Of a stretch of 64,000 bases of DNA, positions 5,105-62,452 are shown piece by piece. Position 1 is the stretch's first letter. The number at the start of each line of letters is the position of its first letter. Source of the DNA: Candidatus Onthomorpha sp. (GTDB lineage: Bacteria; Bacteroidota; Bacteroidia; Bacteroidales; P3); the NCBI GenBank assembly GCA_045645265.1, contig JAZRIM010000006.1, positions 2,000-65,999 of the forward strand, given 5' to 3'. The translations under genes were made by a program, and so were the position numbers. The notes beneath the pieces are model-generated. The model had not been told where the DNA came from, ran no database searches, and was given only the letters and a program-made list of their open reading frames with translations.

Positions 5105-5134
5105 AAAAAGAGCGACTCTATAAAGAATCGCTCT
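5102..5134 (-). terminator. Rho-independent terminator of the 5159-11488 gene
   Basis: Stem AGAGCGA (5109-5115) / TCGCTCT (5128-5134) with a 12-nt loop. On the minus strand it is followed by a T8 run (A-run 5102-5109 on plus). It sits 25 nt past the stop codon. Confidence 0.75.
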
Positions 5135-11488: not shown

Positions 11489-11541
11489 TTTTTTACTTAT
11501 AAATTTATAATTAAACTTTATTTTCTCAAAAAACAAAGTTG

Positions 11542-19143: not shown

Positions 19144-19150
19144 AAAAAAC

Positions 19151-19197
19151 AAAACGCTCGTTTGTCAAAACAAAACAAAGACTCACGAGCGTTTTTT
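19151..19197. terminator. Bidirectional hairpin terminator, copy A of a 55-bp repeated element
   Basis: AAAACGCTCGT (19151-19161) / ACGAGCGTTTT (19185-19195) with a 23-nt loop, A-run on the left and T-run on the right. Nearly identical to 44411-44459. Confidence 0.7.
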
Positions 19198-20229: not shown

Positions 20230-20257
20230 AATTTTTCGTTAATAATTTTTCAAACCA

Positions 20258-20749
20258 CAAAGGTAAAACAAATTTTTAAAAGCACAAAAAACTTGCGAAT
20301 AAATTCTTAATTTTCCAAGTTCAAGAATCAGAGAAATAAACTTTATTTTACAGAAATTTCATTTTGGGATTTTTGCAAAAATTCTTGCGAAAAATTGACG
20401 AAAATTGGGGTAAATTTTTCGCAGATTTGGAGTTTTTTTACGAAAAGCTCGTTTAGAATTTTCTAAAGCAGGGATAGAAATTTCTAAATCAAGGATAGAA
20501 AAAATTAAATCAAGTTTTTTTTGAAAAAATCAAAGAAAAAATTGAAAAAAACAGCGAAAAATTTGGCAAAATCAAAGACTTTTTGGGCAAAAATCGGGCT
20601 TCAAAAAATTAAGTCATTGATTTTGTGATTTTTAGTCAAGGGCTTATTTTTAAAAAATTTGCAATAAGAAATCTTAAAGTTGAAAATATCGCAAGCATTT
20701 GGGCTTAACTCTTGGGGAAAGTTTTTTATTTTCTCTTTTCATTAAAGGC
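20258..20749 (-). repeat. ~490-bp intergenic repeat, copy A (A-tract block, 21-bp units, inverted repeat); includes the -7 box TACCTTTG at 20258-20265
   Basis: Aligns without large gaps to 45918-46410 at a constant offset of 25660. By eye roughly 90-95 percent identical over 20361-20749. 21-bp unit cores start at 20468, 20489, 20510, 20530, 20551 and 20572. Confidence 0.9.
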
Positions 20750-26445: not shown

Positions 26446-27531
26446 CTATAACATCTTTAAGAAATTGATTTCTTTTTCAGTTAAAAATCTACATCTTCCT
26501 CTTGGCAAATCTTTCTTTGTCAATCCTGCAAAACTTACTCTATCCAATTTCTCAACATAGTAACCCATAGCCTCAAACATACGTCTTACGATTCTATTCT
26601 TACCACTATGAAGTTCTACTCCTACAACTTTTTTGTCGTTGTAATATTCTACAAATTGAATATCGTCAAATCTTGCAAAGCCGTCTTCCAATTCTATTCC
26701 GTCAAGCAAAGATTGCATATCGTTTTTTGTAAGAGGCTTGTTCAATTCTACGTGATAGATTTTTCTTGCACCAAAAGAAGGGTGTGTAAGCTTCTTTGTC
26801 ATATCTCCATCGTTAGTAAAAAGCAACAAACCTGTTGTATTTCTATCTAAACGGCCGACAGGATAAATTCTTTCTGTGCAAGCCTTTTCTACAAGACTCA
26901 TTACAGTTTTTCTTTCTTGCGGATCGTCAAGCGTAGTTATGAATCCTTTTGGTTTATTAAGCAAAAGATAGACTTTTTTCTCATGTGAGAGTCTTTCTCC
27001 GTCATAACAAACAACATCAGAGGTAGAAACTTTAACTCCCATTTGAGTTACTACCTTTCCATTCACCGTTACAGCTCCCGAAGCAATCAAAACATCTGCC
27101 TCTCTTCTTGAACAAACACCAGAATTTGCAATAAACCTATTTAAACGTATGTCTTTATCAAGAGTTTTTATAGGCTTTTCACTATATGTATTTCTTTCAC
27201 GCTCAAATCTCTTTGGCTCTCTATCGAAAGTCTTTTCCTTGCGAGAAAATCTCTCTCTCTTGTCTGAAAATCTTTCTTTCTTATCGGAAAAACGTTCTCT
27301 CTTATCTGAAAATTTCTCCTTTTTGTCAGAGAAGCGTTCTGCTTTTTCAAACGATTGTATTCTCTTTCTCTTAAACTCTCTTGGAGCTTGCTCGCTATCT
27401 CTTTCAAATTTTTTTGAAAAAGGCTTTCTCTCTTCTCTTTTCTCTTTGTTAAAGCCCCCCTTTTGAGGTCTTTTCCAATCTCTATTTTCGTTTCTTCTTT
27501 CCATTTCTATAACTTTTACCGATATTCCCAT
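26446..27531 (-). CDS. rluB: 23S rRNA pseudouridine synthase, RluB/RsuA family, with a basic repeat extension
   Basis: S4 domain (IRLNRFIANSGVCSRREADVLI) and the catalytic motif PVGRLDRNTTGLLL. The start is uncertain: ATG 27531 or ATG 27504. The track's TTG 27612 lies upstream of the -7 box. Confidence 0.85.
   Translation of the reverse strand: MGISVKVIEMERRNENRDWKRPQKGGFNKEKREERKPFSKKFERDSEQAPREFKRKRIQSFEKAERFSDKKEKFSDKRERFSDKKERFSDKRERFSRKEKTFDREPKRFERERNTYSEKPIKTLDKDIRLNRFIANSGVCSRREADVLIASGAVTVNGKVVTQMGVKVSTSDVVCYDGERLSHEKKVYLLLNKPKGFITTLDDPQERKTVMSLVEKACTERIYPVGRLDRNTTGLLLFTNDGDMTKKLTHPSFGARKIYHVELNKPLTKNDMQSLLDGIELEDGFARFDDIQFVEYYNDKKVVGVELHSGKNRIVRRMFEAMGYYVEKLDRVSFAGLTKKDLPRGRCRFLTEKEINFLKML
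27184..27351 (-). repeat. Eight 21-bp coding repeats (basic heptads, F every 7th residue)
   Basis: AERFSDK KEKFSDK RERFSDK KERFSDK RERFSRK EKTFDRE PKRFERE RNTYSEK. Confidence 0.85.
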
Positions 27532-27560: not shown

Positions 27561-27677
27561 CAACAAAGAAATAAAAAGAGAAGAAAAAAACTAAAAGAAA
27601 AACAAAAAACAAAACGTTTTTACAGCATCGTTAAAATTTCAGTTCACAAGTGTAAAACGAAGTTTTAAGGTAAATAA

Positions 27678-28025
27678 CGTTTATTTTACGGAAATTTCAT
27701 TTTGAGAAAATTTCGAGTTCCTTGACCAAAATTGAGCGAAATCAAGTAACAAAATCGCTAAATTTGAACTTTCTTTCTTGAAAAGCTGATTTAATTTTAA
27801 AAAGTCAGCGTTTTTTTGAAATAAAACAAAGAAATAATTTCTTAAAATCAAGAATTATTTTTCTCAAATCAAGAAATAATCACACTAAAACAAAGAAAAA
27901 ATTAGCGTTTTTCTGACTTCAAAAAAGTTAAATTATTGATTTACTGCTTTTTAGTTAAGGGATTATATTTTCAATATTTGCAATCGGAAAATTTAGGCTT
28001 GAAAATATCACACGCATTCGGCGTT
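27678..28025 (-). repeat. Diverged third copy of the ~490-bp repeat family
   Basis: Shares these blocks with copies A and B in the same order: TTTATTTTACGGAAATTTCATTTTG, GAAAAGCT, four 21/22-bp units (cores at 27826, 27848, 27869, 27890), TTCAAAAAAGTTAA, and TTTAGTTAAGGG.TTAT...ATTTGCAATCGGAAA...TTGAAAATATC. Confidence 0.75.
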
Positions 28026-28125
28026 AAATTTATAGAAATTTTGTTTACATCCGAAAATTCGTGGCGATTCTGTTTTATATAAGTTAATAAAATAGAAAGA
28101 CTCTTTTGTTTGAGAATTTTTTTTG

Positions 28126-28133
28126 TAACTTTG
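28126..28133 (+). promoter_or_regulatory. -7 box TAACTTTG
   Basis: 35 nt upstream of ATG 28169. Confidence 0.55.
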
Positions 28134-28168
28134 CAATGTTTTTAACTTTAGCATCTCTATAAATTATT

Positions 28169-30217
28169 ATGAAAAGATTAACAACTTTTATTTTAAGTTT
28201 TGTGCTAACTATGAGTCTTATGGCACAAAATCTAAGCAATAATACAGTAAGTGTTACATTCTATGACACTACTGCCACAGTTGCTATAGCAGATAATATT
28301 TCTCAATATATCACAACAACGATTAGTGGAGCACACGTTTCTATTGTTCAAAGCAGTGAAGTATCTGAGGAAATAACTTATAGGCTTAGTGGTACATCTA
28401 ACGATGGCGAGTTTTATATGTCGGGTTCTTATAAGGCAACTATTGAATTGAACGGATTAAATCTAACAAATCTAAATCCTGTTAATAGTGGTGCAGCTAT
28501 TCATATTGATAATAGCAAACGCATAAAGGTGAAAATTTTAGACGGAACTACTAATAGTCTTGTTGATGCTGCAAGTGGTTCTCAAAAAGGTTGTTTTTAT
28601 ATAAAAGGACACTCTGAATTTTCCCAATCAGGCACATTAAACGTAATTGGAAATAAAAAACATGCAATTAAAGTAGGAGAATATATTTCAATAAAAGATG
28701 CAACTATTAACGTAACATCGGCTTTGGGAGATGGCATTTCTTGTAATCAATATTTTCTTATGGAAAGTGGATTTGCTAATATAAGTGGAACTACTGATGA
28801 CGGTTTGCAATGCGACCTTGATAGTGATTCTTCTACGGGTATTATAGAGGATCACGAAGATGAAGATTCAGGTAATATCTATATTAGCGGAGGAAATATC
28901 ACTATCAATTGCAATGGAATTGCAGCAAAAGGAATTAAGAGTGAAGGAGATATATATTTGTCTGACGAATGTGTAATTAACGTAACTACAACAGGTAATG
29001 GAAGATGGGACGAGGAAGATTTAGAAACAAGTGCTGCTTGTGGAATTAGTGCAGATGGCAATATTACTATTAGTGGAGGAAATATTACTCTTGTTGCAAC
29101 AGGTTCTGGAGGAAAAGGTTTGAAATGTGATGGAATTTTAACAGTGAGCGGAGGAAATCTTTCTGCTGAAACAAGTGGTGCTCTTTATTATAATAATGGT
29201 ACAACAGAGAATTTAAACTATACAGGTAATACTGACAATGTAGATAATGCTTATTATTCTTCTCCAAAAGCTATTAGGGTAGGTGTTAAAACTGAAAATG
29301 GCAATAGCTATACTTATAGTGGAGGAATTGTTATTAGTGGTGGGGTAATTAAAGCAAAAACAAGCGGTACTAATGCAGAGGGTATAGAAAGTAAAAACAC
29401 CTTAGAAATTAGCGGAGGAGAAATTTACGTTGATGCTTACGATGATGGAATTAACTCTGGTCAAGATATGATTATTACAAATGGATATGTTTATTCACGC
29501 TCTGCTAATAATGATGCAATAGATGCAAATGGAGATGTTTATATAAATGGAGGACTTGTTTACGCAATAGGCTCTCGCGCTCCAGAAGTAGCTATTGATG
29601 CCAACTCTGAGGAAGGAAAACGCCTATATCTTAACGGAGGAATAATAATTTCTATAGGAGGGTTAGAACAAGGTGCTGTTTTATCACAAACTTGCTATCA
29701 ATCATCAACTGTAAATAGCAATACATGGTATTCAATGAGCTATGGAAATGAAGTTATTGCTTTTTATGTTCCAACAATTAGCAGTGGTGGTGGACCTGGT
29801 GGGTGGTCTGGATATGCTCCAGGAGGTCCTGGCGGACCTGGTGGTAGCAATTCAAGTGGTTTAATTGTGTCTACACCTTCTACTCCAACGATAATGAATG
29901 GTATCACAATAGATGGAGGAAGTAGCATTTTTGAAGAAAACTGTTATCTTGATGCTATAGTGAATGGAGGTTCTAATGTAACAGCAACCATATATGGGAA
30001 TAGTGGTGGCGGTAGTAACTCGCTTGAAGATTTTGATATGACGAATATTACTATAAGAAATTTAAATAGAGAAATTATTGTGGAAGGTTGTGAGAATTGT
30101 GAATTAAAGATATTTGATATTGAAGGTAGATTAGTAAGTAATTCTAACCTTACCGCTGGAGTTTATATTGTTAAAGTAGGAAATTATCCTGCACAAAAAA
30201 TTGTGATTACAGAGTAA
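28169..30217 (+). CDS. Cthe_2159-like parallel beta-helix carbohydrate-binding protein with T9SS C-terminal sorting domain
   Basis: Signal peptide. Repeated ISGGNIT/ISGG.I coils. Gly/Pro-rich linker GGGPGGWSGYAPGGPGGPGG. C-terminal ...KIFDIEGRLV...GVYIVKVGN...KIVITE. Confidence 0.65.
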   Translation: MKRLTTFILSFVLTMSLMAQNLSNNTVSVTFYDTTATVAIADNISQYITTTISGAHVSIVQSSEVSEEITYRLSGTSNDGEFYMSGSYKATIELNGLNLTNLNPVNSGAAIHIDNSKRIKVKILDGTTNSLVDAASGSQKGCFYIKGHSEFSQSGTLNVIGNKKHAIKVGEYISIKDATINVTSALGDGISCNQYFLMESGFANISGTTDDGLQCDLDSDSSTGIIEDHEDEDSGNIYISGGNITINCNGIAAKGIKSEGDIYLSDECVINVTTTGNGRWDEEDLETSAACGISADGNITISGGNITLVATGSGGKGLKCDGILTVSGGNLSAETSGALYYNNGTTENLNYTGNTDNVDNAYYSSPKAIRVGVKTENGNSYTYSGGIVISGGVIKAKTSGTNAEGIESKNTLEISGGEIYVDAYDDGINSGQDMIITNGYVYSRSANNDAIDANGDVYINGGLVYAIGSRAPEVAIDANSEEGKRLYLNGGIIISIGGLEQGAVLSQTCYQSSTVNSNTWYSMSYGNEVIAFYVPTISSGGGPGGWSGYAPGGPGGPGGSNSSGLIVSTPSTPTIMNGITIDGGSSIFEENCYLDAIVNGGSNVTATIYGNSGGGSNSLEDFDMTNITIRNLNREIIVEGCENCELKIFDIEGRLVSNSNLTAGVYIVKVGNYPAQKIVITE

Positions 30218-35523: not shown

Positions 35524-36204
35524 ATGAAAAAAACAGCGATTCTTTTAATTATTTCTTTGTTTGCGACAAATATTTCTTTGTTTTCGCAAAATAAAACAAA
35601 GACTTCTGGATTTGTTTCCACAACAAGTTTCACAATGGGATTTATTAGCAATTTTGAAGATTTGAATGCCTCTATCAAGTCTTACTATCCAGAATACAAA
35701 GACTTCAATCCAATAATGCAAACAGGTTTTACACTTGGTTTTGGCTATTATTTCAAAGACAGATTTTCTATTTTGACAGAAAGTTTTGCTTCCTCTGCTC
35801 CTTCTGTGAGCAGTCACGAAGACCAATATGCAGAACTACGAAGTTATGGCAGTAAATTAGAGATTTCTTATGTATTTTATAGAGTAAAAAACTTTGATTT
35901 TGAATTTTCTATTGGGCTTGGAGGACAATACAATAGTTTTTTGCATACCATAAAAAACAAAAACGAAGAATATGAACCTAAATTAGCCCTTACTTCCTTG
36001 AATACCGTTGTTCCACTTGGCTTTACTTGGTGGATATACAAAGAAAACGAGGCTCACATTGGCAATAGAGCAGTAGGAATTAGCCTTGACTATAATCTTA
36101 TTGCACACAAAGGGATCACAACCGTTACAGGTTTTACTCAAAAAGCACATTATCCAAACATATCAAGCAACAACCTTTGGATAAGTATTGTACTTAAAAT
36201 GTAA
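35524..36204 (+). CDS. Outer-membrane beta-barrel protein (hypothetical)
   Basis: Signal peptide MKKTAILLIISLFATNISLFSQ. Alternating beta-strand pattern. Confidence 0.55.
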   Translation: MKKTAILLIISLFATNISLFSQNKTKTSGFVSTTSFTMGFISNFEDLNASIKSYYPEYKDFNPIMQTGFTLGFGYYFKDRFSILTESFASSAPSVSSHEDQYAELRSYGSKLEISYVFYRVKNFDFEFSIGLGGQYNSFLHTIKNKNEEYEPKLALTSLNTVVPLGFTWWIYKENEAHIGNRAVGISLDYNLIAHKGITTVTGFTQKAHYPNISSNNLWISIVLKM

Positions 36205-37922: not shown

Positions 37923-38254
37923 TGAAATCATCTGTCTTTAAAGAGAATAAATTATTAAAACGATTTGTAAATAAGTACACAATAACTATACTTATTTTTG
38001 CTGTCTTATTATTATTCTCTCCAAATAATAATATCTTATATTACTTTAAAATAAAGGAACAATGCAAAGAAGTTGAGCAACAAAAAAACTTTATCTTAGA
38101 GGAAATCAAGCAAGATAGTATTAGAAATGCAGACTTAGAAAAAAATATTAAAGCAAAAGAAAAATATGGCAGAGAAAAATATTTAATGAAGGCTGCAAAC
38201 GAGGATATTTACGTAATAAAACAACAAGAAAACAATTCTTCTATTCAACAATAA
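37922..38254 (+). CDS. Septum formation initiator family protein (FtsB/DivIC-like)
   Basis: A single TM helix followed by a coiled coil. C-terminal EKYGREKYLMKAANEDIYVI is typical of the family. Confidence 0.65.
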   Translation: MKSSVFKENKLLKRFVNKYTITILIFAVLLLFSPNNNILYYFKIKEQCKEVEQQKNFILEEIKQDSIRNADLEKNIKAKEKYGREKYLMKAANEDIYVIKQQENNSSIQQ

Positions 38255-38309
38255 TGTCATTCACTAATAAAAAATAAGCCTTTTTCTTAGCGAATTAACA
38301 GAAAAGTTG

Positions 38310-38317
38310 TATTTTTG
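38310..38317 (+). promoter_or_regulatory. -7 box TATTTTTG
   Basis: 53 nt upstream of ATG 38371. Confidence 0.5.
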
Positions 38318-38370
38318 TAGTCTGTTAAAATAGGTTTCTTTAATTTTTTGTCTAAAAATTGATTAAATAT

Positions 38371-40959
38371 ATGAAATTAAAACAAGTAATTTTTTTCTTT
38401 TTGGTGATTGCAAGTGTTAATGTGTTTGCTCAAAAGAGAAGTTTGACAGAAATCGCCGATGAGGCTTTTGAGAACAAGCAATATATTACAGCAGTAGATT
38501 TATACAAAGAAGCTTACACAAAAATAAAAGGCAATAGAGAAGAAAAAAACAGGATAATGTTCCAACAAGCAGAATGTTATCGCTATATGAACGACCAAAA
38601 AATGGCAGTAAAAACCTACCAAAGATTGGTCAAAGCAAAATATTATGATGTTCAGCCTAAGATATTTTTGTATATGGCAGACATTCAAAAATTTAATAGC
38701 GAATGGGATGCTGCAGAATACAACTACAAAGAATATTTAAAACTTGTTCCAGATGATGCTTTGGCTAAAAGAAGGTTACAATCTATTGAATTAGCAAAGA
38801 AATGGATAAACAATCCTACTCGTCACGAAGTTGTGGAATTGAAAAACATCAATACAGAGTGGAATGAGTGGGGACCACGTTTTTCAGCCTCAGAAGACGA
38901 AAATGAAGTTATCTTTACATCTTCACGACCAACTGAAATGAGCGAAGATGTCGATGTTTGGACTGGAGAATATTTTTCAAACATTTACACAAGTGCAAAA
39001 TTAAAAAACAGTGAACTTAGTGAGCCTAATTTAATATCAATAGACCAAATAAACACTGAGGCAAACGAAGGGGAACTTGTGTTTGCGAAAGGCTCTTCTA
39101 CTCAAAATGTTTATTTTTCTCGCTGTCTTGTACAACATAGAGAACAATTGAATTGTGCTATTTATATGACTAAGCCTGTGGAAAAAGATAAAAAAGGCAA
39201 AAAACGCTCACAAATGGACGAGGAACAAGAAGAGCAATCTCCATTTATAATGATTGATCTTGGCGATACTGCTTTTAACTATTTTCACCCAGCAATTTCT
39301 GCTGATGAATTAACTCTTTACTTCTCTTCTAACCGTCCTGGTGGAGAAGGTGGCTACGACTTATGGAAAGCAACAAGAAGTAGCATAGAAGAATCTTTTG
39401 GACGCGTAACAAATCTCGGCAAACTAATCAACACAGAAGGTAATGAACAATTCCCAACTTTACGTTCTGATTCAAGACTTTATTATTCTTCGGATGGATT
39501 GCCAGGATTGGGAGGTATGGACTTATTCTACACTGAATTTGCCAATGAAGAATGGAGTGAACCTCAAAACTTAATGTATCCTATCAATAGCCCTTCTGAC
39601 GAAATTGGTATTATATACAATAAAGTTCCAGTAGAAAATATTGCAGCAGAAGAATCAGGATTTTTCTCCTCTAATAGAGAGGGTGGAACTGGTGGAGACG
39701 ACCTTTATTCTTTTTACAGAGCTCCATTGTTATTCTCTTTGAAAGGAAAAATACGCGATGATAAATCTATGCAACCAATAGATGGAGCAAGAGTACGCTT
39801 AATTGGCGATGACAATTCTTCTTTTGAAACAAGAACTAATAGAAAGGGTGAATACGATTTTACAACAGAACAATTGAAATATAATGTTAATTATAAGATT
39901 CAAGTATCTCAAATAGGTTACTTTAACAACGAGGGAAAAGAATCTACTGTTGGATTAACAACAACTACTGAATTGGTTCACGACTTCAAATTAAAACCAA
40001 TACCAAAAGAACCTATCGTATTGCCAGAAATACGTTATGACTTAGCAAAATGGGAATTAAAAGATCAATATCAAGACTCTCTTTCAGATTTATTAGTAAT
40101 ATTGGTTAATAATCCTACTTACGTTATAGAACTTGCTTCACATACTGACTCTCGTCCTTTCCTTAGAGTAACAAATGACACTTTAAGTCAAAGAAGAGCT
40201 GAATCGGTTGTAGAATTTCTTGTAGCAAGAGGAATAGATAGAGACAGATTGATTCCAAAAGGCTATGGCGATAGAGTACCTCGTACATTAAAAACAAATT
40301 GTGTATCAGAATTTGGTGGAAAGGAATACTCTTTTGCAAAAGGTATAACTCTTACTGATGACTATATCAATAAATTGAGAACTAAAAATGAAAAAGAAGC
40401 TGCTCACCAACTTAATCGTAGAACCGAGTTTAGAATTTTGAGAACTGATTTTGTTCCAAAAGCAGTTTTAGATAGCTTAAAAGATGCCGAATTAAAGGCT
40501 CCAATTGTTGATATGGTATCGGGAACAGTTCCTCCTCCTGATACAGAAATCCCTATCGTTTATACAGATAACCACATAAAAGTTTCAATGATAAATGGTA
40601 GCAAAGCACAAATCTATATCATCTTAAACGGAAAAGCTGTTCCTTGTATTTATGATGAAAAATACAGAGATGCAGCAGTATTAGATTGGGATTTAGCAAT
40701 GAAATTTTTATTGGAGGGTAGAATCACAAAAGATGATTTCAAAGATAGAGATAAAGCTTTTGACGAAGACGGAAATATTTTAGACAATTCTGTACTTACA
40801 TTCAAATCTGCTTACATTGGAAAATACTTTGCAGATAAATATGAAGTAATCGTAAGAAAAGGAATGAAATACGATATGATTGTAAATAGAAATGGACTAA
40901 TAGATTTCGGTACATTTACCTTCTCACGAGCAAGAGGAGAAATAATATTTGAAGAATAA
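38371..40959 (+). CDS. TPR / TolB-like beta-propeller / CarboxypepD_reg / OmpA-domain envelope protein with an extra 168-aa C-terminal domain
   Basis: The start is moved to ATG 38371 (MKLKQVIFFFLVIASVNVFAQ). PD40-type repeats are present (YFSS.R.GG.GG.DL). OmpA motifs LASHTDSR...LSQRRAESV...NRRTEF. Confidence 0.8.
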   Translation: MKLKQVIFFFLVIASVNVFAQKRSLTEIADEAFENKQYITAVDLYKEAYTKIKGNREEKNRIMFQQAECYRYMNDQKMAVKTYQRLVKAKYYDVQPKIFLYMADIQKFNSEWDAAEYNYKEYLKLVPDDALAKRRLQSIELAKKWINNPTRHEVVELKNINTEWNEWGPRFSASEDENEVIFTSSRPTEMSEDVDVWTGEYFSNIYTSAKLKNSELSEPNLISIDQINTEANEGELVFAKGSSTQNVYFSRCLVQHREQLNCAIYMTKPVEKDKKGKKRSQMDEEQEEQSPFIMIDLGDTAFNYFHPAISADELTLYFSSNRPGGEGGYDLWKATRSSIEESFGRVTNLGKLINTEGNEQFPTLRSDSRLYYSSDGLPGLGGMDLFYTEFANEEWSEPQNLMYPINSPSDEIGIIYNKVPVENIAAEESGFFSSNREGGTGGDDLYSFYRAPLLFSLKGKIRDDKSMQPIDGARVRLIGDDNSSFETRTNRKGEYDFTTEQLKYNVNYKIQVSQIGYFNNEGKESTVGLTTTTELVHDFKLKPIPKEPIVLPEIRYDLAKWELKDQYQDSLSDLLVILVNNPTYVIELASHTDSRPFLRVTNDTLSQRRAESVVEFLVARGIDRDRLIPKGYGDRVPRTLKTNCVSEFGGKEYSFAKGITLTDDYINKLRTKNEKEAAHQLNRRTEFRILRTDFVPKAVLDSLKDAELKAPIVDMVSGTVPPPDTEIPIVYTDNHIKVSMINGSKAQIYIILNGKAVPCIYDEKYRDAAVLDWDLAMKFLLEGRITKDDFKDRDKAFDEDGNILDNSVLTFKSAYIGKYFADKYEVIVRKGMKYDMIVNRNGLIDFGTFTFSRARGEIIFEE

Positions 40960-42590: not shown

Positions 42591-42687
42591 TTTTTTATTC
42601 TTTGCTTTAAAAAACTATTTCTTTGATTTATTTTTTTATTTCTTAGAAAAAATTATCGCTTACTTTCGTTTCTTTGTTGTATCTTTG
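42591..42687 (+). repeat. Array of 21-bp-phased TTCTTTG-like units running into the der -7 box (TATCTTTG 42680-42687)
   Basis: The C of each CTTT(G/A/C) core falls at 42600, 42621, 42642, 42663 and 42683. Confidence 0.75.
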
Positions 42688-44396: not shown

Positions 44397-44410
44397 AAAA
44401 ATAAAAAAAC

Positions 44411-44459
44411 AAAACGCTCGTTTGTCAAAATAAAACAAAGACTCACGAGCGTTTTTTTT
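44411..44459. terminator. Bidirectional hairpin terminator, copy B of the 55-bp repeated element
   Basis: Same arms as 19151-19195 (AAAACGCTCGT / ACGAGCGTTTT). The loop differs by one base. Confidence 0.7.
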
Positions 44460-44507: not shown

Positions 44508-45572
44508 TTACTCTTTTGCACCAAATAAATATTTTGCCAATATTGGACTTGTTCGTAAAATATTGCTAACAATCAGACAAACAGCAATAACAATGAGTGA
44601 AAGTCCACCTACAATAACTAATTCTAAAACTACGTTGTTACCACTGATAATAGTTCTAATCTGAGGCAAGTAAGGTATGAAAAAATAATGAATAAGATAT
44701 ATGTCCAAAGTTCTTTTGCCGATATATTGCAATGCTTTGCCTACTTTTTTTGTTGATACAAACGAATTTTGATACACCCTAAAAAAGTTATACACTATAA
44801 GCAATCCCATAAAACCTATAAATGTAAAGATAGAATAATACAAAGCAAAAATTACATTACCTCCCAATTTAGGTGATATTTGCTGACATAAACAGAACCC
44901 AATACAAAATAAAGAAATAATTATAAAAGTAAACCACTTGTTTTGAAATACTTTATGAAATCGTTCTTTGTTCATAGAACATATAATACCAAATGAAAAA
45001 TATGGAAAATACTTACCTAATGGAACCAAACTAAATATAGTCCCTAAATTGTTAGGAAATTTTCTCAATATAACACTTGCTCCCAAAAAGATAATCGATA
45101 ATAGTATCAGTGATATCAGTTGACGCTTTTGAAATGTTTTTGAATCGGAATTATAAAGCAAGAGATTCAAGGTATATAAGATAACAAACATCTCAAAAAG
45201 AACAATTGTAAACCAATAACCCAACTTTAGTTCAGCTAACATGAATGTTGTAAAATCGACATGCATATATGCATAAGTGTATATAAGACCAAAGAATAAT
45301 GTAGGTAGTAATTGTATCATTAACTTCTTTTTGCTCATCGTCCACCATGCTTGTTTAGTCCATGCTATATTAGCTTTGTAACTGATAAAACCACTTATGA
45401 AAAAGAATAATGGCATACGAAAAGACATGAACACTTGATTAAGCAAAGAATAAGAATCCTTAAATAGAATTCCCTCAATGTGAGAAAACACCACTAATAT
45501 CATAGTAAATCCACGCAAAGCATCAATGTATTCTATACGCTTTGTGGGTGCTTGTTTGACAATCGTCGTCAT
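44508..45572 (-). CDS. Acyltransferase family 3, cassette B
   Basis: 354 aa, polytopic. Motifs R.EYIDALRGF....V..H and MPLFFFISGF. Confidence 0.8.
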   Translation of the reverse strand: MTTIVKQAPTKRIEYIDALRGFTMILVVFSHIEGILFKDSYSLLNQVFMSFRMPLFFFISGFISYKANIAWTKQAWWTMSKKKLMIQLLPTLFFGLIYTYAYMHVDFTTFMLAELKLGYWFTIVLFEMFVILYTLNLLLYNSDSKTFQKRQLISLILLSIIFLGASVILRKFPNNLGTIFSLVPLGKYFPYFSFGIICSMNKERFHKVFQNKWFTFIIISLFCIGFCLCQQISPKLGGNVIFALYYSIFTFIGFMGLLIVYNFFRVYQNSFVSTKKVGKALQYIGKRTLDIYLIHYFFIPYLPQIRTIISGNNVVLELVIVGGLSLIVIAVCLIVSNILRTSPILAKYLFGAKE

Positions 45573-45680
45573 AATAAAGAATATTTATTTTTACTAATTA
45601 TTACTTTACCCAAGTCCCAAAGGCGATTTACTAATTTGATTTCTTTGATTTATAGGCATAAAAAAACGTGGGACTTTTTT

Positions 45681-45816
45681 CTTATTGATTTCTCAAGGTT
45701 CTGGACTACCTAATCACTCAAACAAGAAAAGCCCACGATATACTCGTGAGCGCTCTCGGCTTATTCTTTGAGTGATTTTAATGAAATTGTCCAGATTTCA
45801 AGAAATCAAATATAAG
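45681..45816. other. 136-nt rod-like imperfect palindrome inside the cassette-B leader (candidate structured RNA or MITE-like insertion)
   Basis: Nested arms of 5, 8, 7, 11, 8 and 5 bp. See the finding at 45573-45917 for the sequences. Confidence 0.6.
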
Positions 45817-45917
45817 CAAAAACGCTATTTTATGTCGTAATAAAATTTTCTAAGTCTAAATTATTCTTCTTTTTCTCTTTTTTATTCTCCTTTTTTTATT
45901 GGTTAATAATTCGCCTA

Positions 45918-46410
45918 CAAAGGTATAACAAAATTTTTAAAGCACAAAAAAACATTAAAGAAACTCTTAATTTCATAATTCAAATTTTATAGATAAAAAT
46001 CTTTATTTTGAGAAAATTTCATTTTGGGATTTTTGTGAAAATTCTTGCGAAAAATTGACGAAAATTGGGATAAATTTTTCGCAGATTTGGAGTTTTTTTA
46101 CGAAAAGCTCGTTTAGAATTTTCTAAATCAGGGATAGAAATTTCTAAATCAAGGATAGAAAAAATTAAATCAAGGTTTTTTTTGAAAAAATCAAAGAAAA
46201 ATTTGAAAAAAACAGCGAAAAATTTGGCAAAATCAAAGACTTTTTTGGCGTTTTTAAGGCTTTAAAAAGTTAAGTCTTTGATTTTGTGGTTTTTAGTTAA
46301 GGGCTTATTTTTTAAAAATTTGCAATCAGAAATCTTAAAGTTGAAAATATCGCAAGCATTTGGGCTTAACTATTGGGGAAAGTTTTTTATTTTCTCTTTT
46401 CATCAAAGGC
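45918..46410 (-). repeat. ~490-bp intergenic repeat, copy B; includes the -7 box TACCTTTG at 45918-45925
   Basis: See copy A. 21-bp unit cores start at 46128, 46149, 46170, 46191, 46212 and 46233. The 14-bp inverted repeat is at 46229-46242 / 46272-46285. Confidence 0.9.
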
Positions 46411-46411
46411 A

Positions 46412-46455
46412 TTAAAAAAATAAAACGGCGATTCTAAATGATAGAACGCCGTTTT
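46412..46455 (-). terminator. Rho-independent terminator of pyrF
   Basis: AAAACGGCG (46422-46430) / CGCCGTTTT (46447-46455), followed on the minus strand by T7. Confidence 0.75.
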
Positions 46456-46456
46456 A

Positions 46457-47281
46457 TTATTTTAGGTAAGAGGCCATTTCTTCTTGCAATTCTTTTGCTT
46501 TTAGGGCTGCTACTTCTGCAAAGTTTTCTGTTGTATCTGCAAAGATTATGCCTCTTGAAGAATTGACTAATAATCCGCAATCTTCGTTAAGTCCATACTT
46601 ACAAACCTCTTGCAAAGAGCCTCCTTGTGCTCCTACTCCTGGCACAAGAAGAAAATGTTTTGGTGCTATTTCTCTTATTCTTGAAAACATTTCTGCCTGA
46701 GTCGCTCCACAAACATACATAAGATTATCTTCTGTTGCCCATTGTTGTGCTTTTACAAGTACGGTTTCAAATAAAGGTGTAGCGTTTTCGTCTTTTGTAA
46801 ATTGGAAATCGTTTGCTCCTTTATTAGATGTTAGAGCTAAAAGTATAACCCATTTTTCTGGATAAACGGTGAATGGTTTTACGCTGTCTTCTCCCATATA
46901 TGGAGCGATTGTCATTGAATCGAATTTAAAATCTCCTTCTTCTGAAAGAAAGGCTTTTGCATATTGTTCTGAGGTATTGCCAATATCGCCACGTTTTGCG
47001 TCTGCTATTGTGAAACATTCGTTTTTAAATTGACGCAAATAATCCATTGTTTTTTTTAAGCTAACTAATCCTTCTATTCCTCTTGATTCGTAGAAAGCAA
47101 GATTTGGTTTGTAGGCTACGGTGTAAGGAAGTGTAGCATCTATTATTGCTTTGTTGAATTCAAAAACAGGATCTTCTTTTGTAAGAAGGTGTTTTGGGAT
47201 TTTGTTTATATCACTATCTAACCCTACGCATAAGAAACTTTTTTTACTTCTTATAAGGTTTACTAATTCTTGTCTTTTCAT
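46457..47281 (-). CDS. pyrF: Orotidine-5'-phosphate decarboxylase (long, type 2)
   Basis: 274 aa. Motifs [17 protein letters not shown] and VPGVGAQG. Confidence 0.85.
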
Positions 47282-47287
47282 ATTACT

Positions 47288-47953
47288 TTATATTAAGTTA
47301 AAAAAATGTTGATACAATTCTTGTTGGATTTTATCTATGTCTAAAGGGGTTGAAGAGTTTAATTCTTTTTGTAAAGAGGTTACTCCTTTGTCTGTAAAGC
47401 CGCAAGGGTTAATGTAGTTAAAGTATTGTAAATCGGTATTAACATTTAAAGCAAATCCATGCATGGTTATTCCTCTTGAGGCTTTAACTCCTATCGCACA
47501 AATCTTTCTTGCTTTAGTTGTGTGTGCGTCTATCCAAACTCCTGTTGCTCCTTTTAGTCTTTCGCAGTTTATTGAATAGTCTTTCATCAAGTTAATAACA
47601 CTTTCTTCTACGGTTTCTATGTAGGTTCTAAGCGTTAATCCTAAGGAGTCTAAGTCTAAACTTGGATATCCTACAATTTGTCCCGGTCCATGATAGGTTA
47701 TATCTCCTCCGCGATTGATATGATGAAATGTTGCGTTGATTTTTTGAAGAAATTGCTCGTTTGCTAAAAGATTTGAGGCTTTTCCATGTTTGCCAAGCGT
47801 ATAAACATGGGGGTGTTGGCATACAATAAAGTCTTGTGAAATGTCTTTTTGAGTAAGAAGCTTTTGATTTACTTTTTTGTTGAATATTTCTTCTTGCTCT
47901 TTTAGTGCTTCATCGTATGCTTTCAGCCCCCAATTTATAAAATTCAAGTGCAT
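47288..47953 (-). CDS. lipB: Octanoyltransferase
   Basis: Motifs RGGDITYHGPGQ and KICAIGV. Confidence 0.85.
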   Translation of the reverse strand: MHLNFINWGLKAYDEALKEQEEIFNKKVNQKLLTQKDISQDFIVCQHPHVYTLGKHGKASNLLANEQFLQKINATFHHINRGGDITYHGPGQIVGYPSLDLDSLGLTLRTYIETVEESVINLMKDYSINCERLKGATGVWIDAHTTKARKICAIGVKASRGITMHGFALNVNTDLQYFNYINPCGFTDKGVTSLQKELNSSTPLDIDKIQQELYQHFFNLI

Positions 47954-50900: not shown

Positions 50901-51375
50901 CTATGTATTCATTTTTGAAAGTGATATATGGATCGTTCAAATCTACCCAATAACCCATTTGAACAGTGAGTTTATCCCACATATCTTTATATTTCATCAC
51001 CTCATTACGACAAGCCGCATTATATTCATCAACAGATATTTTCTTTCCTATATCTTCTTTGGTTATACCTAATTGCTTTTCTACTCCAAGTTCAACAGGT
51101 AATCCGTGTGTATCCCAACCTGCTTTTCTCGCAACATAAAATCCCTTTTGTGTTTTATATCTACAAAAAATATCCTTTATTGTACGGGCCATAACGTGAT
51201 GAATTCCTGGTTGTCCGTTTGCAGAAGGAGGACCTTCAAAGAAGATAAATGGTTTTGCTCCTTCTTTTAATTTCAAGCATTCTTCAAAAGTGCCTTCTTT
51301 TTGCCACTTTTGTAATATCTCATCTGAGATTTGAGTTAAATTAAGTTGTTTATACTCTGCGTATTTTGTACTCAT
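47956..51375 (-). CDS. ileS: Isoleucine--tRNA ligase (long, type 2)
   Basis: 1139 aa. HIGH variant PSANGQPGIHH and KMSKR. Confidence 0.95.
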   Translation of the reverse strand: MSTKYAEYKQLNLTQISDEILQKWQKEGTFEECLKLKEGAKPFIFFEGPPSANGQPGIHHVMARTIKDIFCRYKTQKGFYVARKAGWDTHGLPVELGVEKQLGITKEDIGKKISVDEYNAACRNEVMKYKDMWDKLTVQMGYWVDLNDPYITFKNEYIETLWYLLGILHEKGYLYKGYTIQPFSPAAGTGLSSHELNMPGCYRDVKDTTAVAQFRAKNQEEVKAKYLAGENLSEDVYFLAWTTTPWTLPSNTALAVGPNIDYVFVKTFNPYSGLPMIAVVAKALLGSFFPEKNAELSFEEYKSGDKAIPFKILSECKGKDLKGEEYEPLTDFITPMGNAFKVIEGDYVSTADGTGIVHIAPTFGADDDRVAKQAGIVPMFVMDKEGKNQPMVDRTGKFFKIEDLDEEFVSKYVKESYREFAGRYVKNAFDSSLTEKDPTLDVDICVYLKQSNKVFKIEKHTHNYPHCWRTDKPILYYPLDSWFIRTTAIKDRMIELNKTINWKPEATGSGRFGNWLENLVDWNLSRSRYWGTPLPIWRTEDGKHEICISSVEMLSNEIEKSIAAGYMKENPYKDHKNYDSFDLHRPYIDSVILVAPNGEKMKRETDLIDVWFDSGAMPYAQLHYPFDCNDKELANNFPADFIAEGVDQTRGWFFTLHAIATLCFDTISFKNVVSNGLVLDKNGNKMSKRLGNGVNPFDILSQYGPDATRWYMITNTQPWENLKFDPSGIDEVRRKFFGTLYNTYSFFALYANIDNFTYAEKDVANEERPEIDRWILSELNSLIDFCDKSYSDYEPTKAGRAIANFVDEYLSNWYVRLCRRRFWKGEYSQDKISAYQTLYTCLETLSQLIAPIAPFFAERLFTDLNNVSKRHCSFSVHATDFPKCDSSLIDKELEERMQMAQKICSLVLSLRKRNNLKVRQPLSKIMIPAKDAHQQNQIEAVKDLILSEVNIKNIDFLTKENNVLVKSIKANFKTLGPKFGPKMKAIASAISSFSQEDIAQIEAEGKYLLNIENAEIEIMLSDVEIITQDIPGWVVTNEADLTVALDTTITDSLRQEGISRELVNRIQNIRKEQNFDVTDNIIVEIQQCELLCQAVDTFKEYICSETLTKELKFVDTIENPLQTIDVIEGEELAINIRKA

Positions 51376-51401
51376 ATTCGTTATTATTTATAAAATGACT
51401 G

Positions 51402-51409
51402 CAAAAATA
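51402..51409 (-). promoter_or_regulatory. -7 box TATTTTTG for ileS
   Basis: Plus-strand CAAAAATA, 26 nt upstream of ATG 51375. Confidence 0.55.
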
Positions 51410-51414
51410 ATAAA

Positions 51415-51498
51415 AATCAGCAAATTATTTCTTTAAATCAGCAAATTATTTCTTTCATTTAAAAAATTATCTCTTTGAATTAAAAATTTTATTCTTTG
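51415..51498 (+). repeat. Four exact 21-bp units upstream of the UpxY promoter
   Basis: Units: AATCAGCAAATTATTTCTTTA / AATCAGCAAATTATTTCTTTC / ATTTAAAAAATTATCTCTTTG / AATTAAAAATTTTATTCTTTG. The C of each CTTT falls at 51431, 51452, 51473 and 51494. Confidence 0.85.
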
Positions 51499-51544
51499 TT
51501 TTATTTTTTCAATCATTAGTTTGTCGCTTTCCATAATATTTTCT

Positions 51545-51552
51545 TACCTTTG
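51545..51552 (+). promoter_or_regulatory. -7 box TACCTTTG for the capsule-export locus
   Basis: 29 nt upstream of ATG 51582. Confidence 0.55.
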
Positions 51553-51581
51553 CAGAGTTTATTTTTTAATTTGTAAGTAGT

Positions 51582-52127
51582 ATGTTGCACGAAGATAATG
51601 AAGTTTTATGGTATGCAATGAGAGTACCATACAGAAATGAATTGAAAGTGCAATTAAAATTACAAGAAAAAGGTATAGAGACATTTGTCCCTAAACGAAA
51701 AAAAATTGTAAAAAAGAGAGGCAAAACTTCATATGAATTATTGCCAGCAGTAAACAATTTGATTTTTGTACATAGTTCATTGTCTGTTATTAAAAATTTA
51801 AAACAAGAGATATTGAACTTACAATATTTGGTTAATAAATCGGGGTGTGAAAGCATAAAAATTGTTGTTAGAGACAATGAAATGCAAAGTTTTATTAAAG
51901 CAGTAGAAAATTTAGAAGAAGAAATAACATACCTATCGCCTGAGGAAATAAACATTGAGAAAGGAACAAGAGTTAGAATCATAGGAGGAAACTTTGATGG
52001 GGTTGAAGGAATATTTGTAAAAGTAAAAGGGAAACGTAATAAAAAAGTAGTAGTAATGTTAGATAAGTTATTGGCAGTTGTAATGGCAGAAGTAGATTCC
52101 GATTTAATAGAAATAATCAAAAATTAA
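51582..52127 (+). CDS. UpxY-family (NusG-like) transcription antiterminator
   Basis: The WYAMRVPYRNELKV...L...GIETFVP N-terminus and a KOW-like G..VRII.G.F.G.EG segment. It is the first gene of a polysaccharide locus. Confidence 0.8.
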   Translation: MLHEDNEVLWYAMRVPYRNELKVQLKLQEKGIETFVPKRKKIVKKRGKTSYELLPAVNNLIFVHSSLSVIKNLKQEILNLQYLVNKSGCESIKIVVRDNEMQSFIKAVENLEEEITYLSPEEINIEKGTRVRIIGGNFDGVEGIFVKVKGKRNKKVVVMLDKLLAVVMAEVDSDLIEIIKN

Positions 52128-55383: not shown

Positions 55384-56067
55384 TTGGCAAATCTTTTTAG
55401 CAAATTATTCAGCAAAGAAAGCAAATTAAAAAAGAGTGGATTGTTAGATAAAAAATCTGACGTCCACTCTCATATTCTTTATGGTGTAGATGATGGAGTT
55501 CAACAATTAGAAGAAAGTCTTCAAATCCTAAGAGAATTAGAAAACTTAGGCATAGAAACCCTTTGGTGTACTCCTCACATCATGGAAGACATACCAAATC
55601 AAACCAACTTTTTACAAGAAAGATTTCTACAACTAAAAGAGGCTTATAATGGTAAGATTCAATTACATTTAGCAGCCGAATATATGATAGACAATGTGTT
55701 TAACGAAAGACTATCAAAGAAAGATTTCCTACCTCATGGCGAATTTAAAAATCATTTACTTGTAGAAACCTCTTATTTCAATCCTCCATTAAATTTAGAG
55801 GAAACTTTAAAAGAAATATACTCAATAGGCTATTATCCATTGCTTGCTCACCCTGAGCGATATGCCTATATGACAGATAAAGACTATATTAAACTAAAAT
55901 CAAACGGCATAAAATTTCAATTAAACCTACTTTCCTTAAAAGGAATGTATGGGAAAATGGCTCAAAAAAAAGCAGAATGGTTGCTTTCCAAAGAATATTA
56001 CGATGAAGTTGGAAGCGATATTCATTCAATTCATCAAATACGTGCATTAAAAGACTTATTTAAATAA
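55384..56067 (+). CDS. CpsB/Wzh-type PHP-family protein-tyrosine phosphatase
   Basis: DVHSHILYGVDDG and AHPERY motifs. No in-frame ATG; the start is TTG 55384 or TTG 55441. Confidence 0.75.
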   Translation: MANLFSKLFSKESKLKKSGLLDKKSDVHSHILYGVDDGVQQLEESLQILRELENLGIETLWCTPHIMEDIPNQTNFLQERFLQLKEAYNGKIQLHLAAEYMIDNVFNERLSKKDFLPHGEFKNHLLVETSYFNPPLNLEETLKEIYSIGYYPLLAHPERYAYMTDKDYIKLKSNGIKFQLNLLSLKGMYGKMAQKKAEWLLSKEYYDEVGSDIHSIHQIRALKDLFK

Positions 56068-56130
56068 ATAAACGAGCGTTTAAAATAAATAAATGAATGT
56101 TTTAATTTAATAAGTGAGCGTTTTAATTTA
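56061..56130 (+). repeat. Three ~21-bp direct repeats carrying the hairpin half-site (C/T)GAGCGTTT
   Basis: AAATAAACGAGCGTTTAA / AAATAAATGAATGTTTTAA / TTAATAAGTGAGCGTTTTAA. GA(G/A)(C/T)G cores start at 56074, 56094 and 56116. Confidence 0.7.
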
Positions 56131-56134
56131 ACAA

Positions 56135-57244
56135 ATGACTGATTCAAAACAACATTATCAAGTTCTTGACGGATTAAGGGGCGTTGCTGCAATTGTTGTG
56201 ATTTGTTACCATATATTTGAAGGCTTTTCCTTCGCTCAAATTACTAACAACGCTGGCGATGGCTTAATAAGAATATTCAATCACGGATACTTAGCAGTAG
56301 ATTTCTTCTTTTTGTTATCGGGATTCGTAATAAACTATGCCTATAACGATAGGTGGAATCAATTAACAATAGTTTCCTTTTTCAAACGCAGGCTAATACG
56401 CCTCCACCCTATGCTAATAATGGGAGCATTCATCGGATTGATTTGCTTTCTCATTGGAGGCTCTGAGCAATGGAATGGAACAACTATTCCTTTTCATATC
56501 TCAATAATCGCATTCTTACTAACCTGTTTTATGATTCCTGCCTTACCTGGCACATTCAATGAAGTAAGAGGAAATGGTGAACTTTTCCCACTCAATGGTC
56601 CTATGTGGTCTTTATTTTTTGAATACATAGGCAATATTTTCTACGCCTTATTCATCAGAAGATTAAACACAAAACCTCTAACCCTTTTAGTAATTCTCTT
56701 AGGTATTCTTCACGGCATATTTACCATAGGAAACTTTTCCGGATATGGCTCAATAGGAGTCGGTTGGACTTTTGATACAATCAATTTCTTTGGAGGAATG
56801 TTACGAATGCTTTTCCCCTTTACCTTAGGAATGCTTATTTCTCGTCAATTTAAAGAAATAAAACTTCCATATCCATTCTTTTTTTCCTCAATCCTTCTAA
56901 TTGCCACACTTTCCATTCCTTTTATTACTCCTTTTAAAACAATAAATCTCAACGGCATTTACGAATTTCTTTGCATCTCAATAATCTTTCCTATAATTCT
57001 TATAATAGGAGCATCAACTCAAAAAAAATCAAAACCAAGCAAAATCTTAGGAGAATTATCCTATCCTTTATACATCATACACTACCCTATAATGTACTTA
57101 TTCTATCAATGGCTAATAAAAACCAAGCAATACACACTTTCGGAAACCTATCCCGTTGCTTTATTAATAGTAATTCTTTCAATAGCGATTACCTTTGTTT
57201 TATTAAAATTATACGACAAACCTATAAGACAAAGATTAAAATAA
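56135..57244 (+). CDS. Acyltransferase family 3 (third copy, in the export locus)
   Basis: 369 aa. Motifs LDGLRGVAAIVV..YH and FFFLLSGFV. Confidence 0.8.
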   Translation: MTDSKQHYQVLDGLRGVAAIVVICYHIFEGFSFAQITNNAGDGLIRIFNHGYLAVDFFFLLSGFVINYAYNDRWNQLTIVSFFKRRLIRLHPMLIMGAFIGLICFLIGGSEQWNGTTIPFHISIIAFLLTCFMIPALPGTFNEVRGNGELFPLNGPMWSLFFEYIGNIFYALFIRRLNTKPLTLLVILLGILHGIFTIGNFSGYGSIGVGWTFDTINFFGGMLRMLFPFTLGMLISRQFKEIKLPYPFFFSSILLIATLSIPFITPFKTINLNGIYEFLCISIIFPIILIIGASTQKKSKPSKILGELSYPLYIIHYPIMYLFYQWLIKTKQYTLSETYPVALLIVILSIAITFVLLKLYDKPIRQRLK

Positions 57245-62080: not shown

Positions 62081-62452
62081 TGGAAAAGAAATATAGCAAA
62101 CACCCTTTTATTAAAATTGGCATTCTCGCAAGGGTTAGAGCAATAGAAGATTTAGGTAAATTATTTCTTTGACTTAGGAAATTATTTCTTAGGAATAAAA
62201 TATTAAATGATAAGTTTGAGAAAACATCTTCAAAAACAAAAAAAACTATACCTTTACTAATTGAATTTTTATAAAGAACAAAGGATAAAATCAAAGCCTT
62301 ACTCATCACATTCCAAAAGTCGTTTGCTTGGAACTTATGCCAACCGACATCTATGGGATAAAGGAGCGAGAGCATTCACTACAATATTTGCACAAGATTT
62401 GAAACATGTAATTGAAATTCAATAATACATCTGCAATAAGAATATATAAAAT

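Follow-up and report, generated by a model that had tools for sequence, protein, structure and literature searches.

What lies between two minus-strand genes, an Acyl_transf_3 gene (44508-45572) and an orotidine monophosphate decarboxylase/pyrF-like gene (46457-47281), in a 64-kb stretch of Candidatus Onthomorpha DNA (contig JAZRIM010000006.1)? This stretch, 64,000 nucleotides in full and hereafter called the window, has a G+C content of ~33% and consists of ordinary chromosomal housekeeping genes, adk, obg, pheT, engA/der, lipB and pyrF among them. Within the 884-bp gap between the two genes, a first-pass annotation had described a 490-bp element (45918-46410) that it took for a large protein-binding or architectural control region, perhaps an on/off switch for surface acylation. 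We found that the features it listed are only part of a larger modular unit, one copy of which (copy A) is held in this gap. We favor, at a probability of roughly 60%, the reading that the unit is a portable curved-DNA promoter module in a clade of uncultured ruminant-gut Bacteroidales, the copies of which would also serve as homology arms for gene swapping. The observations that carry this reading are the anatomy of the module, the size of its family, its predicted curvature, a promoter match, covariation in a leader RNA and the exchange of payload genes.

Along the direction of transcription, that of the window's minus strand, the module consists of a conserved right block, an array of 21-bp units, a promoter, an untranslated region (UTR) or a longer leader, one or two genes, and a terminator hairpin. 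The window holds three copies in identical orientation: copy A; copy B (20232-20745), a short form ~88 to 90% identical to copy A; and copy C (27640-28045), a diverged copy (~65 to 70% identity) upstream of an RluB-like gene that keeps the right block and the curvature. Similarity of copy A to copies elsewhere runs ~300 bp further left than the 490-bp part, to ~45605, through a segment absent from copies B and C. Coding capacity is low: the 490-bp part has no open reading frame (ORF) of 60 aa or more, as annotated, and the longest is 45 aa. None is kept in all copies of this part, and we rejected a small protein in the conserved block because no frame there is open in every copy.

Is this DNA curved? 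The first-pass annotation had expected bending from A/T tracts in helical phase over 46021-46115. The phasing is there: power at 10.5 bp reached a z of 5.7 in that interval and 9.3 over 46021-46290, with 6.4 and 8.5 in copies B and C. We then predicted curvature with the wedge model (Bolshoy-Trifonov; Bolshoy et al. 1991). Among the 250-bp windows of the 64 kb, 46026-46275 was the most strongly curved, with an end-to-end/contour ratio of 0.50 against a median of 0.90 over all such windows, and copies B and C lay at the 1.2 and 1.8 percentiles of predicted curvature. In 59 further copies the median ratio was 0.54, compared with 0.90 both in control windows and in shuffled sequence, and 93% of them fell below the controls' 5th percentile. 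The 10.5-bp periodicity, which needs no model parameters, supports the wedge-model result. Three other regions of the window rank in the top ~1% for curvature: 51251-51625 and 38151-38450, both promoter regions, and 24551-24825, which sits inside a 792-aa ORF (24067-26445) without a Pfam match.

The predicted curvature resides in an array of ~12 phased 21-bp units (46021-46290), each made of AAA, a G/C-containing core and a T-run. The unit spans two helical turns, with its A-run and T-run half a unit apart, so that the array, ~250 bp long, carries ~24 phased tracts. Six cores had been placed exactly 21 bp apart, and they are, from 46127/8 to 46232/3; Tandem Repeats Finder reported period-21 arrays at 46114-46175 and 46181-46239, and the six-unit chain was recovered in the real sequence, while chains of three or more appeared in 0 of 100 block shuffles. 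The A-tract interval 46021-46115 had been set apart as a block of its own. Slicing in a 21-nt register indicates instead that it is an older, more diverged part of the same array. Across the family the array comprises one inverted unit and then ~10 to 12 direct units. Inverted repeats (TTTTTAAAGC/GCTTTAAAAA) flank the array. In copy A the last direct unit, a 29-bp variable spacer and the inverted unit occupy 46228-46286. The perfect inverted repeat that they form measures 15 bp (46228-46242/46272-46286), not the 14 bp first reported. Both arms are highly conserved across the family and the spacer varies freely, although between copies A and B it is only the second most variable patch (9 of 20 positions mismatched) and not, as had been claimed, the first, which is 45975-45994 (14 of 20). 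We considered whether the spacer had inverted between the two copies and rejected this, as the sequences are not mutual reverse complements. A less conserved stretch of ~100 bp separates the array from the promoter.

The candidate promoter (45918-45948, minus strand) is of the Bacteroidetes type: a -33 TTTG (45945-45948), a 19-nt spacer and the -7 box TACCTTTG (45918-45925). TTTG-N19-TACCTTTG fits the Bacteroidetes consensus (-33 TTTG, a 19- to 21-nt spacer, -7 TAnnTTTG) and is near-invariant in 35 copies; the family consensus reads TTTG-N19-TAccTTTG, with conservation of 8 to 9 out of 9 at the box positions. This -7 box is the sole TAnnTTTG within 45918-46410, as had been noted. Two forms of the module follow from what lies downstream. 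In the short form the ATG comes 22 to 38 nt past the -7 box (a UTR of ~30 nt); in the long form a leader of ~300 nt intervenes, and the ATG lies ~250 to 385 nt from the box. Upstream, the distances from promoter box to right block cluster at ~333, 354, 375 and 396 bp, all 34 that could be measured falling at 16 to 20 modulo 21, and loci with a common right flank can differ by one 21-bp unit. Because the distances are quantized in 21-bp steps, we conclude that the array is a variable-number tandem repeat (VNTR) that keeps the helical phase between block, curvature and promoter.

Perhaps the 21-bp units are instead iterated operators, bound by a sequence-specific regulator of a surface-protein regulon? 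LytTR-type response regulators, for one, use direct repeats of this two-turn geometry. The exact 21-bp spacing, the recurring cores AAATCA(A/G)(A/G)G and the single inverted unit would suit such a regulator, the mostly envelope payloads would suit a regulon, and similar AA(A/T/G)CAAAGAAA arrays stand before other window promoters (5026-5111 and 42598-42644). However, the cores differ widely by subfamily (TCAAAGA, ACAGCGA, GTCCTGA, GCCGATT, TCTGACC, TAAGGGT), while the pattern of A-run, core and T-run is constant; the iteron-like cores therefore do not form the one conserved binding sequence that the first reading of the locus implied. Copy C goes further, keeping the 10.5-bp signal (z = 8.5) and having lost the 21-bp sequence repeat (z = -0.5). 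No regulator gene linked to the module was found among the window ORFs scanned. An operator array, which overlaps with the promoter-module reading, thus appears unlikely as the main account of the units. The data support intrinsic curvature, as modeled, as the dominant conserved property of the 490-bp part, with a presumably architectural role.

Arrays of this kind occur at other places in the window. At 5026-5111 a miniature array without a right block, four 21-bp units long (AAAGCAAAGAAAAAA...), lies between the terminator of a 2125-aa gene and a leftward promoter (-7 box 4931-4938, minus strand). Other period-21 tandem repeats are at 42598-42644, 35550-35593, 51414-51511, 56062-56138, 62158-62205, 27238-27340 and 47353-47399; several are intergenic, and several have TTTCTTTG-like cores that face the downstream gene. 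This genome may make general use of two-turn repeats ahead of its promoters. The gene next to the miniature array is itself repetitive: the giant minus-strand ORF (5159-11536) holds three tandem 249- to 255-bp repeats at 5741-6499 (73 to 84% identity), related 48-nt segments of which recur at 7416-10712 in the same ORF, and its product is presumably a repetitive surface protein.

Conserved curvature upstream of promoters has precedents. Phased A-tracts precede the plc gene of Clostridium perfringens. Curved upstream DNA is found at H-NS targets such as virF and rcsA (PMC4245942, PMC6070653). As in our module, A/T tracts in helical phase lie upstream of the promoter, and curvature is conserved over exact sequence. 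In contrast to those cases, the array here extends over ~250 bp and ~24 tracts, is a 21-bp VNTR and belongs to a dispersed repeat family. We regard curved DNA at H-NS-controlled promoters as the closest mechanistic analogue; to our knowledge, no H-NS-like partner is known in Bacteroidales.

The part of the module most conserved across 74 distinct copies is the right block, ~115 bp far upstream of the promoter (46291-46405). The segment 46290-46365 had been singled out as best kept in the diverged copy, and in copy C its identity is indeed 80%, compared with 36 to 61% elsewhere. Conservation drops sharply past TTTATTTT, and the repeat ends with ...TTTATTTT. Within the block an ATTTGCAAT is invariant, an AAnnTTTG-like box is conserved and palindromic in the family consensus, and the consensus also holds a 10-bp inverted repeat, ATATTTTCAA-N24-TTGAAAATAT, which copies A and B keep only in degenerate form. 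The block usually lies 0 to 2 nt from the hairpin that terminates the preceding gene, or beside a diverging promoter.

How far does the family extend? We found it in five species-level metagenome-assembled genomes (MAGs) of uncultured Bacteroidales, with several copies per MAG, often at contig ends: at least four loci in CALGEC, at least five in CALEFF, at least four in RGIG9896, at least two in UBA3388 and at least one in CALDHX. Metagenomes of sheep and other ruminant guts have the conserved-block pattern on 75 contigs. In total, 85 copies have a near-complete right block. The ~60 complete copies show a single module order and orientation, and the gene always leaves from the promoter end. 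Truncated and mosaic copies also exist. Plasmid, phage and viral-contig collections gave no matches, which led us to reject a phage or plasmid origin. Having been left unmatched to any described element by the first-pass annotation, the family still has none after our searches, Rfam and the plasmid and phage collections included, and is apparently undescribed.

Could a family of this size be simply selfish? In that case the module would be a non-autonomous MITE (miniature inverted-repeat transposable element) with an internal minisatellite and a chance outward promoter, distributed by transposition. The closest published object is of this kind. BrickBuilt, a MITE of Porphyromonas gingivalis (Klein et al. 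2015, PMC4596501), has ~19 copies that are non-coding, always intergenic and endowed with promoter activity; its layout is a leader, a variable number of 23-nt tandem repeats and a tail, with partial and mosaic copies. Our family belongs to the same order, Bacteroidales, and is likewise multi-copy, non-coding, under 1 kb, always intergenic and arranged as leader, ~2-turn tandem repeats and tail; it too breaks assemblies and includes truncated and mosaic copies. But IS5-type terminal inverted repeats (GAGACCTTTGCA) are found in BrickBuilt, along with target duplications in some cases, and it lies in either orientation between genes, with no set relation to the one downstream (PMC4596501). Local alignment of the reverse-complemented left end with the right end in 12 long-form copies of our module revealed no convincing terminal inverted repeats, only CATTTGGG(A)CTT (z from -0.6 to 3.6). 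Nor was a target-site duplication evident: 46 right junctions, at a repeat that breaks contigs, had no common duplicated motif. BrickBuilt as described also lacks a paired 3' terminator repeat, a structured leader hairpin and reported payload exchange, all three of which are present here.

The census speaks against selfish spread as well. The annotation had named a copy distribution like that of a selfish repeat as grounds for doubt, and what we observed was a uniform placement: each copy stands immediately upstream of a gene, oriented like all the others and at a fixed spacing to the ATG. Curvature and the leader's loops are conserved while its stems and the unit cores drift, copies are stable at orthologous sites in genomes ~91% identical in DNA over shared segments, and no recombinase or transposase was found among the window ORFs scanned. 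Uniform orientation and spacing, curvature kept as sequence drifts and stability at orthologous sites point to function kept by purifying selection and not to selfish spread; we consider a MITE improbable. Copy C is at an orthologous site in L140, the sole orthologous contig; at 95 to 99% identity there it is too close to inform on purifying selection, and we dropped that comparison. In the divergent gap that holds copy C (~27600-28200), GC skew switches sign where minus-strand genes on the left give way to plus-strand genes on the right. As the gap contains no DnaA box (≤1 mismatch), the change probably reflects gene orientation and not oriC.

Copies of the module precede genes that have nothing to do with one another. 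Copy B has its -7 box at 20258-20265 (minus strand) and an Acyl_transf_3 payload at 19222-20229 (minus strand); copy A stands before the minus-strand Acyl_transf_3 gene at 44508-45572 (Pfam 2.8e-28). These two payloads are only 26% identical, in contrast to ~88 to 90% for the DNA upstream of them. We rejected a segmental duplication of the acyltransferase locus, since the genes are 26% identical and the flanking non-coding DNA 90 to 98%. Elsewhere the payloads are mutually unrelated, and most are envelope or secreted proteins: WD40 lipoproteins (~10 of 37), BspA-type leucine-rich-repeat (LRR) proteins with a type IX secretion system (T9SS) sorting domain, outer membrane protein β-barrels, PD40 and WG-repeat lipoproteins, small membrane proteins or lipoproteins, a dynamin-like GTPase and Acyl_transf_3. 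The control-region reading thus held for a non-coding, apparently architectural element upstream of a canonical promoter. The proposed tie to surface acylation did not, as the same module stands before WD40 lipoproteins, BspA-LRR/T9SS proteins, outer membrane barrels, PD40 proteins and the dynamin-like GTPase.

Highly similar upstream regions before non-homologous genes, in one genome or in different ones, with no known mobile element attached, have been described as putative mobile promoters (Matus-Garcia, Nijveen, van Passel 2012; PMC3575422). Copies A and B correspond to the operational definition, at least 80% identity of upstream DNA before non-homologous genes (~88 to 90% vs 26%), and the family's unrelated payloads run into dozens. 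The described families are mostly pairs of 50 to 100 bp (PMC3575422), whereas the module here has 500 to 800 bp, several parts, dozens of members, conserved curvature and a matching 3' element.

That 3' element is a conserved 55-nt terminator hairpin, hp55, which closes cassette A at 44403-44457 and is 98% identical to 19143-19197 in cassette B. Its sequence, AAAACGCTCGT...ACGAGCGTTTT, recurs in L016, L024, L058, L061, L105, L111 and many metagenome loci. We counted 31 copies of hp55 in 555 kb of family loci and 0 in 727 kb of unrelated loci. For 26 of the 31 an element promoter lies 0.3 to 2.5 kb upstream, in each case with hp55 in the same orientation relative to the element. In L164, hp55 directly abuts the right block of a second element (tandem slots). 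Tandem slots and mosaic or truncated copies are also seen in L157, L156 and L162; one example is hp55 fused to a right block without its first 18 nt. To judge from such junctions, the modules appear to recombine as separate blocks.

Do the genes between module and hp55 change places? The MAG locus L016 (RGIG9896) and the metagenome contig L172 have in common a left flank with hp55 (95.5% identity over 510 nt) and, on the other side, a segment running from the promoter box through the 490-bp module into the right flank (94.4% over 1056 nt). The payloads enclosed by these flanks are unrelated: 1452 nt in L016, with a leader and two genes, and 737 nt in L172, with one lipoprotein gene in the short form. 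At least six further groups of loci have a common right flank (89 to 99% identity) and different payloads, and in L132 and L183 the left flank and hp55 are common while payload and right flank differ. The locus of cassette A itself can be set against L024 of UBA3388: EngA, a 122-aa gene and hp55 are common at 88.6%, and a PD40 lipoprotein gene and a 216-aa gene take the place of the acyltransferase. Payloads break off at the inner edge of each of the two repeats, which fits homologous recombination between dispersed copies.

Variable genes at one chromosomal site between conserved flanks are known from the minimal mobile elements of Neisseria. In Bacteroidales, rAID-1 arrays are integron-like, with variable genes bracketed by repeats (bioRxiv 10.1101/471110). 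Our loci resemble all of these, as repeats bracket variable accessory genes and different payloads occur at one site. Unlike in integrons and rAID-1 arrays, in which the array adjoins a tyrosine recombinase and attC-like repeats separate genes that lack promoters, the slots here are dispersed among housekeeping genes, each with its own 0.5- to 0.8-kb promoter module; tandem pairs such as that in L164 are only occasional; no attC-like site was found here, and no integrase among the window ORFs scanned; and the exchange looks like homologous recombination. We tentatively raise a broader possibility, that 5' module and 3' hairpin together form dispersed "expression slots" for a decentralized, integron-like shuffling and horizontal exchange of envelope and secreted-protein genes within a population, with the 21-bp VNTR tuning slot expression. 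Such exchange might proceed by homologous recombination or by a hypothetical dedicated recombinase at the conserved block.

The long form of the module adds an RNA. Its optional leader of ~300 nt (45605-45900, minus strand) is 69 to 83% conserved in L016, L111, L024, L105, L041 and L062 and in many metagenome copies. It contains a 125-nt rod-like hairpin (45685-45809, minus strand; minimum free energy -52.7 kcal/mol, z = -6.2), and this fold is shared by all 22 long-form copies, with energies of about -50 kcal/mol. The minus-strand sense has 107 G-U pairs, and the opposite strand is less stable. Three helices are hypervariable across copies, yet complementary within each: duplex energy between a copy's own halves, compared with pairings to the halves of other copies, was -14.3 vs -6.9 ± 2.5 for P2 and -7.1 vs -2.9 ± 1.8 for P0. 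The internal loops AAUUUCA, UAGGUAG and ACCUCA are nearly invariant, as is the apex (45731-45751), which a terminator scan scored as terminator-like. In an alignment of 21 sequences, 89.4% of the cells at 50 base pairs were paired (39 to 51% in slid controls), and 20 pairs had double changes; compensatory cells numbered 101, compared with 34.6 ± 4.7 in shuffles (0 of 500). Compensatory stem changes alongside nearly invariant loops indicate a selected RNA structure and not decaying terminal repeats. That the leader hairpin is a new structured RNA is well supported. At gathering thresholds Rfam found only a tRNA in the window and nothing for the element, and an E-value search of 45500-46500 gave chance-level hits only (E ≥ 0.13, scores far under the gathering thresholds).

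Hairpin-forming intergenic repeats such as the Correia (CREE) and ERIC elements are cited in PMC3575422. The leader resembles them as a ~125-nt imperfect palindrome predicted to be co-transcribed with the downstream gene; it differs in its hypervariable stems with compensatory changes and its nearly invariant internal loops. Correia and ERIC repeats influence how mRNA is processed and how stable it is, and promoters can be part of them. A 9-nt match in copy A had prompted the idea that stem P2 pairs with the start of the downstream mRNA; we rejected it, as duplex energies with a copy's own mRNA and with other copies' mRNAs were alike (-6.3 vs -6.2 and -4.1 vs -4.3). Several long forms (L016, L111, L024, L105, L126, L139 and others) have a nine-codon mini-ORF (ATG CCT ATG GTA ATA GAA AAA GAA AGA TAA) that begins exactly at the short-form ATG position (equivalent to window ~45880-45905); it is lost in copy A and not conserved in L041 and L062. 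It might encode an attenuation leader peptide. Downstream of the leader hairpin, long-form copies have a second TTATGCCT motif.

With so clearly structured an RNA adjoining it, might the whole 490 bp also be transcribed? A minus-strand transcript starting in the right block, or reading through from upstream, would turn the region into non-coding RNA or a long 5' leader, with the repeats as RNA elements. The conserved AAnnTTTG-like box of the right block, palindromic in consensus, could provide the start, and in copy B the stop codon of the upstream gene abuts the repeat with no obvious terminator. Yet a hairpin of its own closes the upstream gene in most copies, directly beside the repeat end, and a promoter that by its motif is strong and canonical lies downstream of the region, 22 to 38 nt from the ATG. 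Right block and inverted repeat have no consensus structure on either strand (alifold energy ~0), and an apparent GCUUG/CAAGC stem lacks covariation across copies, which led us to reject a structured or small RNA there. Single-sequence folding of the 490-bp part gave a z of only about -3 on both strands, an uninformative value that we attribute to the inverted repeat and the A/T runs. A long transcript is accordingly a poor candidate, and we give it little weight.

Two last ideas, an invertible phase-variable promoter switch and an iteron-type replication or partition site, call for a brief comparison with known cases. Invertible promoters (fimS, the Bacteroides Mpi/Tsr systems) have inverted repeats that flank the promoter, both orientations in populations and a linked recombinase; an iteron-type origin occurs once per replicon, has a rep gene as its neighbor and includes DnaA boxes as well as an unwinding element. 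Inverted repeats are present here (the perfect 15-bp repeat, and the pair around the array), and tandem units in AT-rich DNA resemble plasmid origins, but this reading is already largely refuted and we hold it to be very improbable: the ~60 complete copies, from many samples, have one module order and orientation; the 15-bp repeat encloses just 29 bp without a promoter; recombinase and rep gene are absent among the window ORFs scanned; copies A, B and C have no DnaA box (≤1 mismatch); and copies number three in the 64 kb and many in each genome, beside housekeeping and envelope genes, with no matches in plasmids, phages or viral contigs.

We return to the portable curved-DNA promoter module, which in our view would work as follows. 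A housekeeping-sigma-type promoter would fire leftwards on the minus strand, behind ~250 bp of curved DNA and the ~115-bp right block. Array and block together would form an upstream nucleoprotein or architectural element. Through wrapping of RNA polymerase or contact with it, through recruitment of a nucleoid or regulator protein, or through both, this element would govern how strong or how responsive the promoter is, and changes in unit number would leave the helical phase intact. Transcripts of the long form would pass through the 125-nt hairpin with its terminator-like apex, likely an attenuation, processing or stability element. Module and hp55 bracket unrelated accessory genes, mostly for envelope or secreted proteins, and the dispersed copies would act as homology arms through which these genes are swapped between loci and strains.

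Several points weigh against this reading. The right block, the most conserved part, is left unexplained by it, and the weak AAnnTTTG box in that block could mean that the whole region is transcribed. The transcription start and the regulatory effect are deduced from motifs, and we infer any protein partner and the recombination mechanism. The curvature is a prediction of the wedge model and depends on its parameters. Both flanks are visible in one payload swap only, and the other cases could be rearrangements between dispersed copies. Finally, copies of the module break assemblies, which biases the contexts that can be seen; the module's repeats explain the recurrent assembly breaks in these MAGs.

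What would the module mean for the organisms that carry it? The leader hairpin would be a new structured RNA, and the module would offer natural promoter and terminator parts for the engineering of Bacteroidales. If the reading is right, uncultured and abundant ruminant-gut Bacteroidales run accessory surface genes from one standard, physically distinctive control region, and exchange these genes among loci and strains by way of the same repeats. Three subjects that as a rule are treated separately would then be connected: DNA curvature as a conserved regulatory signal, the mobility of promoters and the cassette-like diversification of the cell surface. Such diversification would bear on interactions with phages, hosts and competitors in the rumen and gut.

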